Shown piece after piece: positions 4,670 to 23,291 of a stretch of 64,000 bases of DNA. Made by a program: the position numbers and the translations under genes. The notes below the pieces were generated by a model. That model saw only the letters and a program-made list of their open reading frames with translations, was not told the origin of the DNA and ran no database searches. Source of the stretch: Pseudooctadecabacter sp. (lineage in GTDB: Bacteria; Pseudomonadota; Alphaproteobacteria; Rhodobacterales; Rhodobacteraceae); assembly GCF_965657175.1 (NCBI RefSeq), contig NZ_CBFHNH010000003.1, positions 94,155 through 158,154 on the forward strand, read 5' to 3'. The stretch's first letter is position 1. Each line of letters starts with the position of its first letter.

Positions 4670-6427
4670 ATGACCGAATCCGACAGCACCCAGTACCAAG
4701 TCCTCGCCCGGAAATACCGCCCCGAGACGTTCGCCGACCTCGTCGGTCAAGACGCCATGGTGCGCACCCTGAAAAACGCCTTCGCCGCAGACCGCATCGC
4801 GCAGGCGTTCATCATGACGGGCATTCGGGGAACCGGTAAAACGACGACCGCACGGATCATCGCCAAAGGCATGAATTGCATCGGGCCGGACGGAAATGGC
4901 GGTCCCACAACGGAACCCTGCGGGGTCTGCGAAAACTGCGTGGCGATCATGGAAGGCCGCCACGTCGACGTCATGGAAATGGACGCCGCATCGCGCACCG
5001 GCGTGGGCGACATCCGCGAAATTATCGAAAGTGTGCATTACCGCGCGGCCTCTGCCCGCTATAAAATCTACATCATCGACGAAGTTCACATGCTGTCGAC
5101 ATCTGCGTTCAACGCACTTCTCAAGACGCTCGAAGAACCGCCCGCCCATGTGAAATTCATCTTTGCCACCACCGAAATCCGCAAGGTGCCGGTGACGGTC
5201 CTGTCCCGCTGTCAGCGCTTTGATTTGCGCCGGATCGAACCCGAAGACCAGATCGCCCTGCTGCGCCGCATCGCCACCGCCGAAGGGGCCGAGATCACTG
5301 ACGACGCTTTGGCGCTGATCACCCGCGCCGCCGAAGGATCGGCCCGTGATGCGCAATCGCTGCTGGATCAGGCCATTTCCCACGGGGCTGGCGAAACCAC
5401 CGCCGAACAGGTGCGCGCCATGCTGGGTTTGGCGGATCGGGGCCGTGTGCTGGACCTGTTTGACATGATCCTCAAAGGTCATGCGGCTGAGGCCCTGACC
5501 GAACTGTCCAGCCAATACGCCGATGGCGCGGACCCCATGGCGATCCTGCGCGATCTGGCCGAAATCGCCCATTGGGTCAGCGTGATCAAGATCACCCCCG
5601 ACGCTGCCGAAGACCCCACCGTGGGACCCGATGAACGCACCCGCGGCGCCGACATGGCCGAGGCGCTGCCCATGCGCGTCCTGACCCGATTGTGGCAGAT
5701 GCTGTTGAAAGCATTGGAAGAAGTCTCCATGGCGCCCAACGCGATGATGGCTGCCGAAATGGCGGTGATCCGCCTGACCCATGTGGCCGACCTGCCCAGC
5801 CCCGAAGAACTCGTGCGCAAACTGGACGGTCAAACACCGCCGCCCCCCACCACAGGCGGCGGCGCCCCCCGCCCTGCGCAATCCGCCCCGCCCGACGCGC
5901 GCGGTGCACCGGCCCCCACCCATTCCGGCCCGTCCGGCACGTCCATGTCCGCAGGTGGCGCGGCGGTGGCCATTGCCACGCAAGAAGCGCTGCAACACTA
6001 CCCGACTTTCGATCATGTGGCCGAACTCATCCGCCGCCACCGCGATGTCAAATTGCTGGTTGAGGTTGAGACCGGCGTGCGACTGGCCGCCTATCAACCG
6101 GGCCGGATCGAATTTGAACCGGCCCCCAACGCCCCGCAGGATTTGGCCCAACGGCTCGGCTCTCGTTTGCAGGCGTGGACAGGCAACCGCTGGGCCGTAA
6201 CCGTGGTCAACGACGGTGGCGCACCCACCATCGCGGAAGTCCGCGACGCCGAAATGAACGCCCTGCGCGACCGCGCCACAACGCACCCCGTGGTGCAGGC
6301 CGTGCTGTCCCAATTCCCCGGCGCCAAGATCACCGAAATCCGCAGCCCCAAAGAGCTTGAGGCCGAAGCCCAGCAAGACGCCTTGCAAGAGGTCGAAGAC
6401 GAATGGGACCCCTTCGAAGACAGCTAA
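4670..6427 (+). CDS. dnaX: DNA polymerase III subunit gamma/tau
   Basis: YQVLARKYRP, GIRGTGKTT, CGVCENC, IIDEVHMLS, LSRCQRF. Confidence 0.98.
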   Translation: MTESDSTQYQVLARKYRPETFADLVGQDAMVRTLKNAFAADRIAQAFIMTGIRGTGKTTTARIIAKGMNCIGPDGNGGPTTEPCGVCENCVAIMEGRHVDVMEMDAASRTGVGDIREIIESVHYRAASARYKIYIIDEVHMLSTSAFNALLKTLEEPPAHVKFIFATTEIRKVPVTVLSRCQRFDLRRIEPEDQIALLRRIATAEGAEITDDALALITRAAEGSARDAQSLLDQAISHGAGETTAEQVRAMLGLADRGRVLDLFDMILKGHAAEALTELSSQYADGADPMAILRDLAEIAHWVSVIKITPDAAEDPTVGPDERTRGADMAEALPMRVLTRLWQMLLKALEEVSMAPNAMMAAEMAVIRLTHVADLPSPEELVRKLDGQTPPPPTTGGGAPRPAQSAPPDARGAPAPTHSGPSGTSMSAGGAAVAIATQEALQHYPTFDHVAELIRRHRDVKLLVEVETGVRLAAYQPGRIEFEPAPNAPQDLAQRLGSRLQAWTGNRWAVTVVNDGGAPTIAEVRDAEMNALRDRATTHPVVQAVLSQFPGAKITEIRSPKELEAEAQQDALQEVEDEWDPFEDS

Positions 6428-19044: not shown

Positions 19045-19104
19045 CGCGTCAGGTCCTGCCAAATAAGGTGTTGGCGGGGGTTTAACGGAAAGGCCCAGCG
19101 GGGG

Positions 19105-19305
19105 CTAGTCCTTGCGGGTCTTCGCCTTGAGCCATTGGTTCACCGCAAAGACCGGCAGAATGATCACCGCCCAGCCCAGTGCGTTAAGACCGGTCAGCCG
19201 ACGCTTGGCCTCTAACGGAATATCGGGGTCACGCCACAACCCGATATGGGCGACCACGATCAACGTCACGAGGACGGCTAACCCAAGTTTTGACCGCTTT
19301 GTCAT
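19105..19305 (-). CDS. Small two-helix membrane protein, function unknown
   Basis: 66 aa, two hydrophobic segments. ATG overlaps the upstream stop (ATGA), GAGG RBS. Confidence 0.7.
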   Translation of the reverse strand: MTKRSKLGLAVLVTLIVVAHIGLWRDPDIPLEAKRRLTGLNALGWAVIILPVFAVNQWLKAKTRKD

Positions 19306-20504
19306 GTTGCCCTCGCGATGAAGCCCACGCGCAAAAAACGGCGCAGCAGGTCGGTCACGGTGTCGCGCAGTGCGGAACGCTCCACATCCGGCAGAGCATC
19401 AGCCAGAAGGTCAATGAGGTCGCTGGGCGAAATTGCCTCCTCAAGCAGGTCCAGAACATGTGCCGCGATTGCGTCAAACTGCAGCATCCGTTCCCCGTCA
19501 CAGCTGGCCCCGACCCAAACGTCGCCAGCGGGGTACAGGACTGCAAAACGTGTGCGCTGGTAGGCGCGCATAAAATCCAAAGCGGAGCGATCGGGGTGCG
19601 GTCCGGGGTGTGGGAACTGCACGTCCTGTCTGGGGGCCGGCAGCAGATGGTCAAGGCCAGACATCACAAGGTCTGCTGCCTCGCCAACATCACTGTAGGT
19701 CAGGCGCACCGCTGGGGCGGTCTGGGTCAATGTGATCAATGCGCTCAGCGCTTCGCCCGCTGGCAAGCCACGGGAGAAATTCTGCTTGGCCAGTGCGGCT
19801 AGAACGTCCCCCGAAGGCACCTCCGACAGGGTCGTGGGCCCATCGTCTGCACGGTCCAGCAGCACAATTGACCGGATGGGGGCCACCATGCCGTGCGCAG
19901 CAACAGTCTGTCCGCCGACATAGCGATACTGCTTGTTTTCAGGACCGGGGTTCGCGCCAACAAAGGTCAGCACCTCGGGCGGCAGCCCCTCTGGCAAAGG
20001 CAAACGCAGGCGCGCAGCGATCCCTGTGGCATGCCCAATCAACGCCCCGCTGGGACCGCGGTCAACCAGCAGATAATCATCGGTAAACAATCGCGCCCCA
20101 CGGGCCATCAGTGCCACAGACAGGGTCGATTTCCCCGCCCGTCGCAAGGCCGGGAACAGTGTCAGCCCGCCATCGCCCTCAACAGCGGCGGCGTGAAAAC
20201 ACAACCTGTCCGGCGATTGCGCGATCAACGCCGAGGCGAGAATGCTCAGCAGATCGCAGATGACATTCACCTGAGTCTTGTGGATGCGGGGTTCAGTGGT
20301 GTGAGGGGACTGGATCAACCATGCGGTGCCATTAAAGGCCAGCACGGCGCAAGGAACCTCGGGGCCGTATTCGGCCGGTACGGTCCGTTTTACAGTAAAG
20401 GGCCAGCAGGGAACGTACCCCGCCAGCCCTGTCACCAGATCATCGCAATCAACGCAGCGGACTGGGGCCGAAAGCCCCTGAAACCAGATATCGTGAACGG
20501 TCAC
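19302..20504 (-). CDS. HPr kinase-like P-loop protein fused to a C-terminal PqqD/RRE-like domain
   Basis: LCFHAAAV (HprK-type His), PALRRAGKSTL Walker A, LFTDD acidic pair. The last ~90 aa have the beta-beta-beta/alpha-alpha-alpha PqqD-like pattern (FDAIAAHVLDLLEEAIS.SDLIDLLAD....DTV.DLLRRF...GFI). Confidence 0.7.
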   Translation of the reverse strand: MTVHDIWFQGLSAPVRCVDCDDLVTGLAGYVPCWPFTVKRTVPAEYGPEVPCAVLAFNGTAWLIQSPHTTEPRIHKTQVNVICDLLSILASALIAQSPDRLCFHAAAVEGDGGLTLFPALRRAGKSTLSVALMARGARLFTDDYLLVDRGPSGALIGHATGIAARLRLPLPEGLPPEVLTFVGANPGPENKQYRYVGGQTVAAHGMVAPIRSIVLLDRADDGPTTLSEVPSGDVLAALAKQNFSRGLPAGEALSALITLTQTAPAVRLTYSDVGEAADLVMSGLDHLLPAPRQDVQFPHPGPHPDRSALDFMRAYQRTRFAVLYPAGDVWVGASCDGERMLQFDAIAAHVLDLLEEAISPSDLIDLLADALPDVERSALRDTVTDLLRRFLRVGFIARAT

Positions 20505-20520
20505 TGCACCGATGGGTCAA

Positions 20521-20913
20521 TTAGTTTGCGATGCGCAGACCGGCATCGGACAGACAGGATTCAAAACTGCTCTGGCTGGTGCTGGACGACTGGCAGTTGC
20601 CAATGGACGCATCAATATTGGCATCGCCCGTAGACGCGATGGACGGTGCGCTCCAATCGGAGGCCTCAGAGGCGGAGGGTGCTGATGCAGCAGAATAGGC
20701 CGACGACGCGGAGGATACCGAAGACGCCGACGAAACCGACGATGCGGGCGAAACCGATGAAGCGGACGAAACCGATGAAGCGGACGATGCTGAAGACGTG
20801 CCAGAGCTATGACTGGCCGCCATGACCGACATGGTCGGAGCGAAGACACCGGCTGTGGTAAGTCCAGCAAGACGCGTCAGCGCCGCACGACGGGACAGGG
20901 TTTTGGTTGTCAT
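20521..20913 (-). CDS. Tat-signal, serine-rich repeat peptide (putative kinase substrate/precursor)
   Basis: LSRRAAL twin-arginine motif plus hydrophobic stretch, (SSA/SSV)n core, C-terminal C-x12-C. AAGGGA RBS. Confidence 0.75.
   Translation of the reverse strand: MTTKTLSRRAALTRLAGLTTAGVFAPTMSVMAASHSSGTSSASSASSVSSASSVSPASSVSSASSVSSASSAYSAASAPSASEASDWSAPSIASTGDANIDASIGNCQSSSTSQSSFESCLSDAGLRIAN
20697..20800 (-). repeat. Degenerate 18-bp tandem repeat encoding SSASSV units
   Basis: TCGTCCGCTTCATCGGTT appears twice exactly on the minus strand, followed by diverged units. Confidence 0.8.
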
Positions 20914-20960
20914 GATTTAATCCCTTAAGACTGATTAGGCCAAAACATGGCTTCTGCCTA

Positions 20961-20976
20961 GTTATTAGGCAATTAA
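20961..20976 (-). promoter_or_regulatory. Candidate CtrA box upstream of the Ser-rich peptide gene
   Basis: Minus strand TTAA-TTGCCTA-ATAAC versus consensus TTAA-N7-TTAAC (one mismatch), in an AT-rich spacer. Confidence 0.45.
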
Positions 20977-21020
20977 GTCCTAAAGATGGCATCAATCATG
21001 GCGGACTTTCGCCGGCGGTT

Positions 21021-22085
21021 TCAGGTGCCGCCATGCACTGTTGGGACCTGCAACGCGCTAAACCCGTAGTGTTTCAGCCAACGTAGATCGCTTTCAAAGA
21101 AGGCGCGCAGGTCGGGGATGCCGTATTTCAGCATCGCGATCCGGTCGATCCCCATCCCGAAGGCAAACCCCTGCCATTCATTGGGGTCGATGCCGCCCGC
21201 TTGCAGGACTTTGGGATGCACCATGCCGGACCCCAAAACCTCAAGCCAATCGTCGCCTTCGCCCACTTTCACAGTACCGCCTGAGAAATCGCACTGGATG
21301 TCGACCTCGGCGCTGGGTTCGGTGAACGGGAAATGCGACGCACGGAAACGGGTTTTCACCTTGGTGCCGAAGTAAGCGGTGAAGAATTCCTCTAGCGTCC
21401 ATTTCAGGTTCGCCATTGAGATGTCTTTGTCGATGGCCAGACCTTCGACCTGATGGAACATAGGCGTGTGGGTCTGGTCATAATCGGCACGGTACACGCG
21501 GCCGGGGCAGATGATGCGGATGGGTGCACCCTGTTCTTCCATAGACCGGATTTGTACGGGGCTGGTGTGGGTCCGCAGCACGTGGGGCGGGCGGTTATCG
21601 CCTTCGGCGCGGTGGGTGTAGAACGTATCCATCTCGGCCCGCGCGGGGTGGTGGCCGGGGATGTTCAGCGCGTCGAAATTGTACCAGTCGGATTCGATTT
21701 GCGGGCCTTCGGCAGTGGCAAAACCCATGTCCGCGAAGATAGCTGTGCATTCTTCCCAAACCTGACTTACCGGATGGATCGTGCCCTGACGCCGGTCCCG
21801 TCCGGGCAAGGTCACATCCAACCATTCCGCCTTCAGCCGTTCATCAAGGGCGGCATCGGCAAGGCCAGCCTTCTTGGCGGACAGCGCGGCGTTAATCTCA
21901 TCCTTCAGCGCATTCAAAGCGGGGCCGGCGACCTGCCGTTCCTCCGGCGTCATCTTGCCCAGTTCACGCATCTTGAGGCTGATTTCGCCCTTTTTGCCGA
22001 CAGCCTGCACGCGCAAGTCTTCGAGCGTGGATTCGTCCGCAGCGTTCCCGATAAGGTCGAGGTATTTGGATTTCAGATCGTCCAT
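21021..22085 (-). CDS. pheS: Phenylalanine--tRNA ligase alpha subunit
   Basis: [66 protein letters not shown]. Confidence 0.98.
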
Positions 22086-22211: not shown

Positions 22212-23291
22212 ATGACCGATCTGAACGATGTCCTTGACCCTCTGTTTGCGGCGTCCCATCCCGATGTGATGGCGCGCACCACGATGGAGGCCACACTACC
22301 GATTGCCTTTTTAACGGATGTGTACGCAGCAGAAGAAAACTCGGATATCCTTGCCGCCTATGCCCGTTGGACCCGGCGGATCATCGGGTCCGAAAACTGT
22401 TCAATTTCCCTGATCCAACCGGACACATCCCTCAAGATGTTGGCGATTTCAGGCGAAGAAACGATCGAAACCGATACGGTCCGCGCGCTGACGGCCTCAG
22501 CCGTCGGGGCGGTGGTGATGCGCAGGACGGGCCTGTTCGTTCCCTGTTTGGGCGATATACCCGTCGCTGCGGCCCAGACGGCGGCCAATAACGGGTTCCA
22601 ATGTTCCTACGTGGCCCCGATCCTCGCAGGTGAGACATGTTTTGGCACCCTCACGGCGAGTTTTCGGGTCGAAAGCGTGCGCCCCGCACGCGTTCTGACT
22701 GTGATTGAGGCTATGGCCCTGTGCATGGGGTCGCAGATGCTCCTCGTTGAACAGATGACGCGGCTGCGTGATGTCGCGTTAACCGACCCGCTGACCGGCA
22801 CAAACAACCGCCGCGCGTTGGACGAAGCGACACCTTTGACGTGGGAAAAGTGGGAGAAGGAAAAGGTGCCCTTCGCCATCCTCGCCCTCGATATTGATCA
22901 CTTCAAATCCGTCAACGACACCCACGGTCATACTGTAGGGGATGAAATCCTCAAACAAATGGCTCAGCGGATCATGGATCAGGTGCGCGAAGACGATATG
23001 GTGGTGCGTTTGGGGGGCGAAGAATTCGGCGTGCTGTTGCCGCGCACGAAATACGACACGTCCTTGCAAGTCGCCGAACGCATTCACGCGGCCATCCGGT
23101 CTGCGCCCTTTCGAGTGGGGGACCTTGTCTTGCCCGTCACGGCAAGTTTTGGCGTGACCGAGATTGCCTCTGACGATGTGTGCGCCGAAGATGTCTTGGA
23201 ACGCGCGGATCAGGCACTTTATGCGGCCAAACGGTCAGGACGCGACCGCGTGATCCGGTTCGATCACACCCGGTCCATATCGGCGGCCTAG
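22212..23291 (+). CDS. GAF + GGDEF diguanylate cyclase
   Basis: TDPLTGTNNRR, DIDHFKSVNDTHGH..GD, REDD I-site (RxxD) five residues before GGEEF, ADQALYAAKRSGRD. Confidence 0.93.
   Translation: MTDLNDVLDPLFAASHPDVMARTTMEATLPIAFLTDVYAAEENSDILAAYARWTRRIIGSENCSISLIQPDTSLKMLAISGEETIETDTVRALTASAVGAVVMRRTGLFVPCLGDIPVAAAQTAANNGFQCSYVAPILAGETCFGTLTASFRVESVRPARVLTVIEAMALCMGSQMLLVEQMTRLRDVALTDPLTGTNNRRALDEATPLTWEKWEKEKVPFAILALDIDHFKSVNDTHGHTVGDEILKQMAQRIMDQVREDDMVVRLGGEEFGVLLPRTKYDTSLQVAERIHAAIRSAPFRVGDLVLPVTASFGVTEIASDDVCAEDVLERADQALYAAKRSGRDRVIRFDHTRSISAA

Follow-up and report, generated by a model that had tools for sequence, protein, structure and literature searches.

Serine-rich gene and its genomic setting

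The DNA analysed here is a 64,000-nucleotide stretch of a Pseudooctadecabacter contig, which we refer to as the window. It contains a short serine-rich ORF followed by a gene for a 400-aa protein in which an HprK-like kinase is fused to a PqqD/RRE domain. This module is placed between pheS (21021-22085) and a resident gene for a 66-aa protein plus pheT, and these two are the only module genes between pheS and pheT. The features are listed below in the direction of reading.

20921..20926, minus strand: Shine-Dalgarno-like AAGGGA, 7 nt 5' of the ATG, read from the sequence
20521..20913, minus strand: putative precursor (substrate) gene, 130 aa, made up of a leader, a Ser-rich, predicted disordered core and a C-terminal two-Cys hairpin
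20806..20913, minus strand: leader, residues 1-36, with the twin-arginine motif S7-R8-R9-A-A-L and a hydrophobic region
20836..20847, minus strand: V23-F-A-P26, at the family's Y-x-x-P position, inside the hydrophobic core
20698..20796, minus strand: strict SSx core, residues 40-72, 11 triplets, encoded by an 18-bp tandem repeat
20635..20697, minus strand: decaying S-x-x / x-S-x triplets, residues 73-93
20545..20622, minus strand: predicted helix-turn-helix hairpin, residues 98-123, with the motif C-x12-C-L-x-D-A-G
19302..20504, minus strand: 400-aa HprK-like kinase fused to a PqqD/RRE domain, starting 16 nt past the precursor stop codon
19635..20222, minus strand: kinase core, residues 95-290, with H104, the P-loop G124-K125-S126 and D142-D143
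19311..19562, minus strand: RRE (PqqD-like) peptide-binding domain, residues 315-398
19105-19305, minus strand: 66-aa ORF with two predicted TM helices, whose ATG overlaps the kinase stop codon (ATGA)

The product of the serine-rich ORF contains 43 Ser in 130 residues (33%), the same number as had been estimated in the initial annotation. Residues 40-72 read SSA-SSA-SSV-SSA-SSV-SPA-SSV-SSA-SSV-SSA-SSA, eleven triplets in exactly the order already described, and the decay into S-x-x triplets was recovered as seven looser triplets at residues 73-93 (YSA-ASA-PSA-SEA-SDW-SAP-SIA). Two features of the locus are absent from the initial annotation, namely the Tat-like N-terminus of the peptide and the adjoining kinase-RRE gene.

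The serine-rich peptide gene is real and conserved. A chance ORF or a wrong reading frame is excluded by 14 database homologues (P0070-P0083) with an architecture like that of the window peptide, by the ribosome-binding site and by the pattern of substitutions. The latter was obtained by comparison with L001, the locus of a 90%-related Pseudooctadecabacter MAG that served as the reference for all dN/dS values; the first 66 precursor codons gave a dN of 0.015, a dS of 0.77 and a dN/dS of ~0.02. By this comparison of window and L001, strong purifying selection acts on the repeat sequence in the window lineage. An overlapping 117-aa Arg/Pro ORF was rejected as a repeat artefact, not a gene.

The repeat had been described as an expanding 18-bp repeat. 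Tandem Repeats Finder detected a period of 18 with 5.5 copies and 80% matches at 20700-20798, so the period was recovered; the expansion was not. The repeat Ser codons are TCN throughout, and the 18-bp units vary mostly at synonymous third positions (TCT/TCA/TCG/TCC), which makes them old duplications. Moreover, the array is identical on contigs from three independent metagenome studies, and both observations stand against a recent expansion or a strain polymorphism. The window array is ~16 residues longer than those of the nearest relatives. In a fourth metagenome (run X12) the contigs merely break at the precursor repeats. N runs (assembly gaps) are located exactly in the precursor repeats of L001 (~5640-5740), L017, L056 and L057, and on the P0003 contig the precursor has no gene call. 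Precursors of this kind are systematically under-annotated; gene callers routinely miss them, and their repeats break assemblies.

The 66-aa ORF was considered as a third gene of the module and rejected, since module-less relatives also have it ahead of pheT, as a resident gene; its label in one source is "phenylalanyl-tRNA synthetase subunit beta". A search for RNA sequencing runs yielded none that could be identified as such. Scans of the DNA near the module gave no sigma-70-like promoter and a single weak terminator-like site, which is inside pheT.

The pheS-pheT spacer is a variable spot (window 19063-21020; L082 3201-4000; L083 3162-4000). The module occupies it in the window and in L001; L083 and L084 have a gene for an ASCH-domain protein there, and Pseudooctadecabacter jejudonensis (L082) has an unrelated short ORF. 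Remnants of the module were not found in this spacer in module-less relatives, and flanking repeats were discarded as insertion scars, only short chance matches being seen. In two diverged lineages (P0003 contig; L081 4578-6191) the module is located elsewhere in the infC-rpmI-rplT-pheST region, in the rplT-pheS interval in one and beside infC in the other. Additionally, the rplT-pheS interval of the window carries a GGDEF diguanylate cyclase gene on the opposite strand (22212-23291, plus strand); in relatives this position is taken by unrelated genes for proteins of 291-349 aa.

The adjoining kinase-RRE protein

The C-terminal domain of the 400-aa protein was assigned to the PqqD family PF05402 with 25.5 bits, above the gathering score. 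The kinase region gave sub-threshold matches to TIGR04352 (HprK-related kinase A, 8e-14), to Hpr_kinase_C (0.024) and to HprK-related kinase B. TIGR04352 is the best-scoring curated family, but the kinase is not a member of it, because it reaches 51.4 bits versus a cut-off of 200. The cut-offs of the HprK/P families were not reached either (TIGR00679, 13 bits versus 240; PF07475, 14.6 versus 33.3), and the kinase lies under the cut-offs of all curated HprK-type families.

A profile built from 35 sequences was compared with known structures. Its RRE region matches TbiB1 (5v1u, 1e-7), TfuB1 (6jx3) and PqqD (3g2b), and the P-loop region matches HprK (3tqf, 1e-4). The AlphaFold2 model of the whole protein (pLDDT 94.4, pTM 0.89) matches PEP carboxykinase (PEPCK) and HprK/P chains in Foldseek, which is the expected superfamily, and its RRE domain is folded as three strands followed by three helices. 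H104, G124-K125-S126 and D142-D143 are invariant in the 35 sequences. H104, K125, D142 and D143 correspond to the His-Lys-Asp-Asp tetrad that is essential in lasso-peptide kinases by mutagenesis (PMC9266682). Since this catalytic tetrad is invariant and the kinase-RRE protein is under purifying selection (dN/dS 0.09, versus L001), we conclude that catalysis matters.

Pairing of precursor and kinase genes

Kinase-RRE loci were collected from one genome per species using a 12-sequence alignment as the query, which yielded 80 loci; a single-protein query gave only one locus, and the 35-sequence alignment was too diverse for scanning. Nearly all hosts are Rhodobacterales/Paracoccaceae, joined by a small number of Kiloniellales, Afifella and Hyphomicrobiales MAGs. 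In 75 of the 80 loci, a small RR-leader ORF is present 45-200 nt upstream of the kinase gene, on the same strand. The five exceptions comprise two loci at contig edges (L036, L075), a coordinate miss (L079), a locus with a downstream leader protein only (L052) and one with none (L016). The linkage of precursor and kinase is not due to a shared neighbourhood, because among the loci only L001 has the pheS/pheT context of the window. The partner kinases are ~30% identical to each other, and the precursor leader is conserved far above the core. In a HMMER search of 1.84 billion representatives, 634 cluster representatives were retrieved at E<=1e-30; among the best 150 of the 634, almost all are full-length, ~400 aa.

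Some loci depart from the common arrangement. In L057 (1351-2195) and L067 (4787-5796), two tandem precursor genes are located upstream of the kinase gene, and in the extra precursor Cys residues flank an SSSGA repeat and the tail is proline-rich. In L079 (5771-6004), a MAG labelled Enterobacteriaceae, the kinase-RRE gene is accompanied by a very different precursor with a family-type leader, whose core is basic, His/Tyr/Arg-rich (HGHHHSRRHGYSRHSYPSYSRPSYSRPSRPSRPSRW) and contains one Cys.

A second leader-bearing protein is encoded downstream of the kinase in 41 loci. In this protein an S/P-rich linker connects an SRRxAL...YxxP leader to a PepSY domain; its profile matches PDB 9vy3 at 6e-12, and PF03413 is matched by 9 of 12 members. 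In ~33 loci the genes next after the PepSY gene encode an OmpR-type response regulator and a histidine kinase. The occurrence of one leader on two unrelated cargos beside an RRE enzyme is the pattern of multi-precursor RiPP clusters, and the link to PepSY and two-component genes suggests a role in envelope signalling or cation buffering. Cultured carriers of the full cassette include Shimia biformata JCM 18818, Tabrizicola aquatica RCRI19, Actibacterium pelagium JN33 and Aliiroseovarius spp. Homologues of the PepSY, response-regulator and histidine-kinase genes of this extended cassette are absent from the 64-kb window, and the window lineage has the two-gene core only.

The twin-arginine-like leader

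The N-terminus of the window peptide, MTTKTLSRRAALTRLAGLTTAGVFAPTMSVMAASHS, fits the form of a Tat signal, in which an (S/T)-R-R-x-F-L-K-like motif is followed by a moderately hydrophobic region and a small-x-small site. Residues 15-33 are hydrophobic, and V30-M-A32 and S34-H-S36 are candidate signal-peptidase I sites. The Tat-signal models of Pfam and NCBIfam gave no match to the window peptide; a weak match to TIGR02811 (E 0.03) was obtained with another clade member, not with the window peptide.

The consensus of the ~35-aa family leader is SRRxALxRxGxLAxAAYxxPAxTTLSxAxA/SS, with many positions 80-93% identical, including the Tyr (90%), the Pro (93%) and the A-x-A (~88%). Ser at +1/+2 after the A-x-A is ~60% conserved, and the window has S36/S37. 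One clade carries the canonical Tat motif RRKFLAKLG. R8, R9, A11 and P26 do not vary in alignment A3, the invariance of RR being partly circular because the leader scan required RR.

The Y-x-x-P site is a candidate RRE recognition sequence by analogy with the lasso and LPP leaders, in which YxxP is the RRE-binding motif (PMC13381572, PMC12710340). It is present in 73 upstream precursors; V replaces Y only in the window and L001, which have V-F-A-P. Hydrophobic substitutions at the Tyr position of YxxP have been reported in lasso leaders (PMC12710340), and despite V-F-A-P the RRE domain is still under purifying selection (dN/dS 0.11, window versus L001).

The N-terminus might be only a RiPP leader that resembles a Tat signal, with the peptide staying in the cytoplasm or being served by an unlinked protease and transporter. 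The failure of the Tat-signal profile models would fit this explanation, as would the conservation of residues in the hydrophobic region (Y, P, TTLS) far above what is normal for signal peptides and the dedicated pumps of the known HprK-type RiPP systems. However, RR, a ~20-residue hydrophobic stretch and small-x-small are found throughout the family, the motif of one clade is canonical, and a pump or protease is linked in none of the 80 loci. Moreover, the same leader precedes PepSY, an extracytoplasmic domain type, and the two conserved Cys residues of the precursors suggest an oxidising compartment. We therefore consider this explanation to be quite improbable.

Variable cores and the C-terminal Cys hairpin

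The cores of the family are hypervariable and of low complexity, rich in Ser, Thr, Gly and Pro. They have a median length of 74 aa and a Ser content of 9-51% (median 26%), are ~6% hydrophobic and are net acidic. Their repeats are of the SSA/SSV, SEP, SAP, GSS, SGPS, TTPSK and GGT types. In the L081 module, which is 42%-related, the window-like C-terminal hairpin is kept and SEP repeats stand in place of SSx. Because homologous precursors carry other repeats, the SSx periodicity is a trait of the lineage and does not define the family. The pLDDT of the SSx core in the AF2 model of the window peptide is 41-45, and the core is therefore predicted to be disordered.

The terminal C-x12-C noted in the initial annotation corresponds to Cys107 and Cys120, with 12 residues between. 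In the AF2 model of the window peptide these are placed on opposite helices of a hairpin (residues 98-110 and 114-123, pLDDT ~80), and C107, F117, C120 and L121 are invariant in alignment A3. Exactly two Cys residues are present at the ends of 62 of the 75 cores, most often as C-x9-C or C-x12-C. The remaining 13 have none; these form the Gly/Ser/Asp-rich clade with RRKFLAKLG and lack the C-terminal domain. The last residue of the window peptide is Asn, and the C-terminal residue varies across the family.

These data bear on a reading in which the Ser-rich stretch is an unmodified spacer between an exported or anchored N-terminus and a functional Cys hairpin, and the neighbouring protein is a signal-peptide chaperone or an enzyme for another substrate. 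It accords with the exchangeable repeat composition across the family, with the hairpin as the only ordered part of the AF2 model, and with the similar S/P-rich linker between leader and PepSY domain in the product of the third gene. Nevertheless, we find it very improbable, since the 13 Cys-less precursors consist of a leader and a low-complexity core alone, the catalytic tetrad of the kinase is invariant and under purifying selection, and the repeat sequence itself is constrained between the window and L001. A glycosylated serine-rich adhesin was rejected as well; glycosyltransferase, accessory Sec and anchor genes are not linked.

The initial annotation had proposed a phosphorylated, exported polyanion by analogy with phosvitin, dentin phosphophoryn and caddisfly silk. 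In these proteins the serines lie in acidic S-x-E or DSS contexts and are modified by secretory-pathway kinases. The window peptide is likewise Ser-rich and of low complexity and may likewise be secreted, but its SSA/SSV repeats have no acidic residues and vary freely among homologues, and no family match was obtained. Homology to these eukaryotic proteins, or to the kinases of phosvitin and phosphophoryn, is absent. Phosphorylation of most or all of the repeat serines would give a polyanion of this type for Ca/Fe storage, chelation, mineral nucleation or adhesion. This would agree with the Ser kinase and docking domain encoded next door, with a core that is Ser-rich, predicted disordered and free of basic residues, and with the strong purifying selection on the SSx sequence in the window lineage. 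We nonetheless regard it as unlikely. The characterised homologous kinases PadeK, ThcoK and LppK stack phosphates on one Ser, not on many (PMC9266682, PMC13381572). Moreover, SSx is not conserved, being replaced by SEP, SAP, GSS or GGT in relatives, and some cores contain 9-12% Ser. The module is also without mineral-, adhesin- or metal-related genes, and neither the sequence nor its surroundings give any hint of mineral nucleation or adhesion. The biomineral and adhesive analogy does not hold, while a phosphorylated, exported peptide gained support from the neighbouring kinase and the predicted twin-arginine-like N-terminus.

Proposed two-gene pathway

We think it rather probable that the Ser-rich ORF and the next gene form a two-gene, leader-guided peptide-modification module with Ser phosphorylation, Tat export and signal-peptidase cleavage. 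The LPP and paeninodin systems, in which an HprK-like kinase, an RRE and a YxxP leader likewise occur together and the leader is taken off by a signal-peptidase-type enzyme, provide a precedent. Phosphorylation and export are plausible because the export-signal-like front end of the peptide probably docks it on the adjoining Ser kinase. In the proposed pathway, the PqqD/RRE domain of the 400-aa protein would dock on the precursor leader in the cytoplasm, and the HprK-like kinase domain would move phosphate onto core Ser. Phosphate might be placed on a single Ser close to where leader and core meet, by analogy with the characterised relatives, or on several repeat serines. The released precursor would then leave by Tat, a pathway that takes small hydrophilic unstructured and pre-modified cargo. 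Signal peptidase I would cleave off the leader at the small-x-small site, and the two Cys residues would staple the C-terminal helical hairpin as a disulfide. The product would be an acidic, disordered phosphopeptide, either periplasmic or secreted.

The V-F-A-P of the window, the lack of a Tat-profile match and the scores of the kinase under the curated cut-offs count against this module. The targets of the known kinases are a C-terminal Ser or core Ser3, and neither position is strictly conserved in the family.

More tentatively, the twin-arginine signal may double as the RiPP leader. The fused RRE would hold the precursor until it is phosphorylated, in the manner of a Tat-proofreading chaperone, and Tat and signal peptidase would replace the pump and the protease. 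The chaperones in question, the REMPs (TorD, DmsD, NapD), are cytoplasmic and stay bound to the twin-arginine leader until the cargo has matured. The likeness is a functional analogy only; the folds are unrelated, and REMPs serve cofactor insertion, not peptide phosphorylation.

Comparison with known systems

The literature that was searched contained no account of an HprK-PqqD fusion, of "HprK-related kinase" or of RiPPs with a Tat leader. The TIGR04352 system, in which an HprK-like kinase is paired with a separate PqqD-family protein, differs from the window module in that the latter has the kinase and PqqD functions fused and an identifiable precursor.

The closest described system is that of the Linear Polyphosphorylated Peptides (LPP) of Bacillota, published in 2026 in Nat Commun. 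Its named components are LppA, an HprK-like kinase (LppK), a discrete RRE (LppB) and LppS (PMC13381572). The LPP precursors, one to three per cluster, have 35-200 aa, a conserved YxxP leader and hypervariable C-termini, and the clusters encode a SipW-like signal peptidase for leader removal, an MsbA-like pump and an NTP transferase (PMC13381572). LppK puts one to four phosphates, stacked, on core Ser3, and YxxP is essential for RRE binding (PMC13381572). The Alphaproteobacterial module resembles this system in its HprK-like kinase, its PqqD-type RRE, the YxxP leader of the family and the combination of a conserved leader with a variable core. The length of the precursors (35-200 aa) and their number per cluster (one to three) also agree, and the leader would likewise be taken off by an enzyme of the signal-peptidase-I type. 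It differs in that the RRE is fused to the kinase instead of being discrete; in that the leader is built like a Tat signal, with the motif inside the signal, the window motif being VxxP; and in that the cores are low-complexity Ser/Gly/Pro sequences, usually with a two-Cys tail. Moreover, none of the SipW-like peptidase, MsbA-like exporter and NTP transferase families is conserved near the kinase in the 80 loci.

The kinases of paeninodin-type lasso peptides (PadeK, ThcoK, SyanK, PsmK) are likewise HprK-related P-loop kinases with an essential His-Lys-Asp-Asp tetrad. Their substrate is the linear precursor with the leader still attached, and the pathway includes a B1 RRE. In contrast, the lasso cyclase and B2 protease are absent from the window module, and the C-terminal Ser that is the target of the lasso kinases is not conserved in the family.

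Bufferins (precursor BufA, the MNIO BufB and the RRE protein BufC) are long RiPP-like precursors with a general-secretion signal peptide in place of a classical leader; they are modified in the cytoplasm, exported to the periplasm, cleaved by the housekeeping signal peptidase and contain a disulfide (PMC11626156). They are thus a precedent for RiPP precursors that rely on a general signal peptide and a housekeeping peptidase. They differ in having a Sec signal and thiooxazole chemistry, whereas the window family has a Tat-like signal and a proposed phosphorylation. Additionally, bufferins can be modified without their signal peptide, whereas the leader of the window family itself holds the candidate RRE motif.

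Implications

The module is widespread in marine and freshwater Rhodobacterales, and ~40% of the loci also have the PepSY protein and the OmpR-type two-component system. If the proposed pathway is correct, leader-guided peptide phosphorylation of the HprK type, so far described only for lasso peptides and LPPs (Bacillota), would reach Alphaproteobacteria, in a minimal version that relies on the cell's general Tat and signal-peptidase machinery. If the Tat signal does serve as the leader, no phospho-RiPP pathway smaller than this two-gene one would be known, and the module would be a concrete case of an RRE that reads a signal peptide. It would also define a class of exported bacterial phosphopeptides, which may act in signalling, cation buffering or envelope physiology, and would provide a function for a family with more than 600 sequence clusters whose only annotation is "PqqD family protein".
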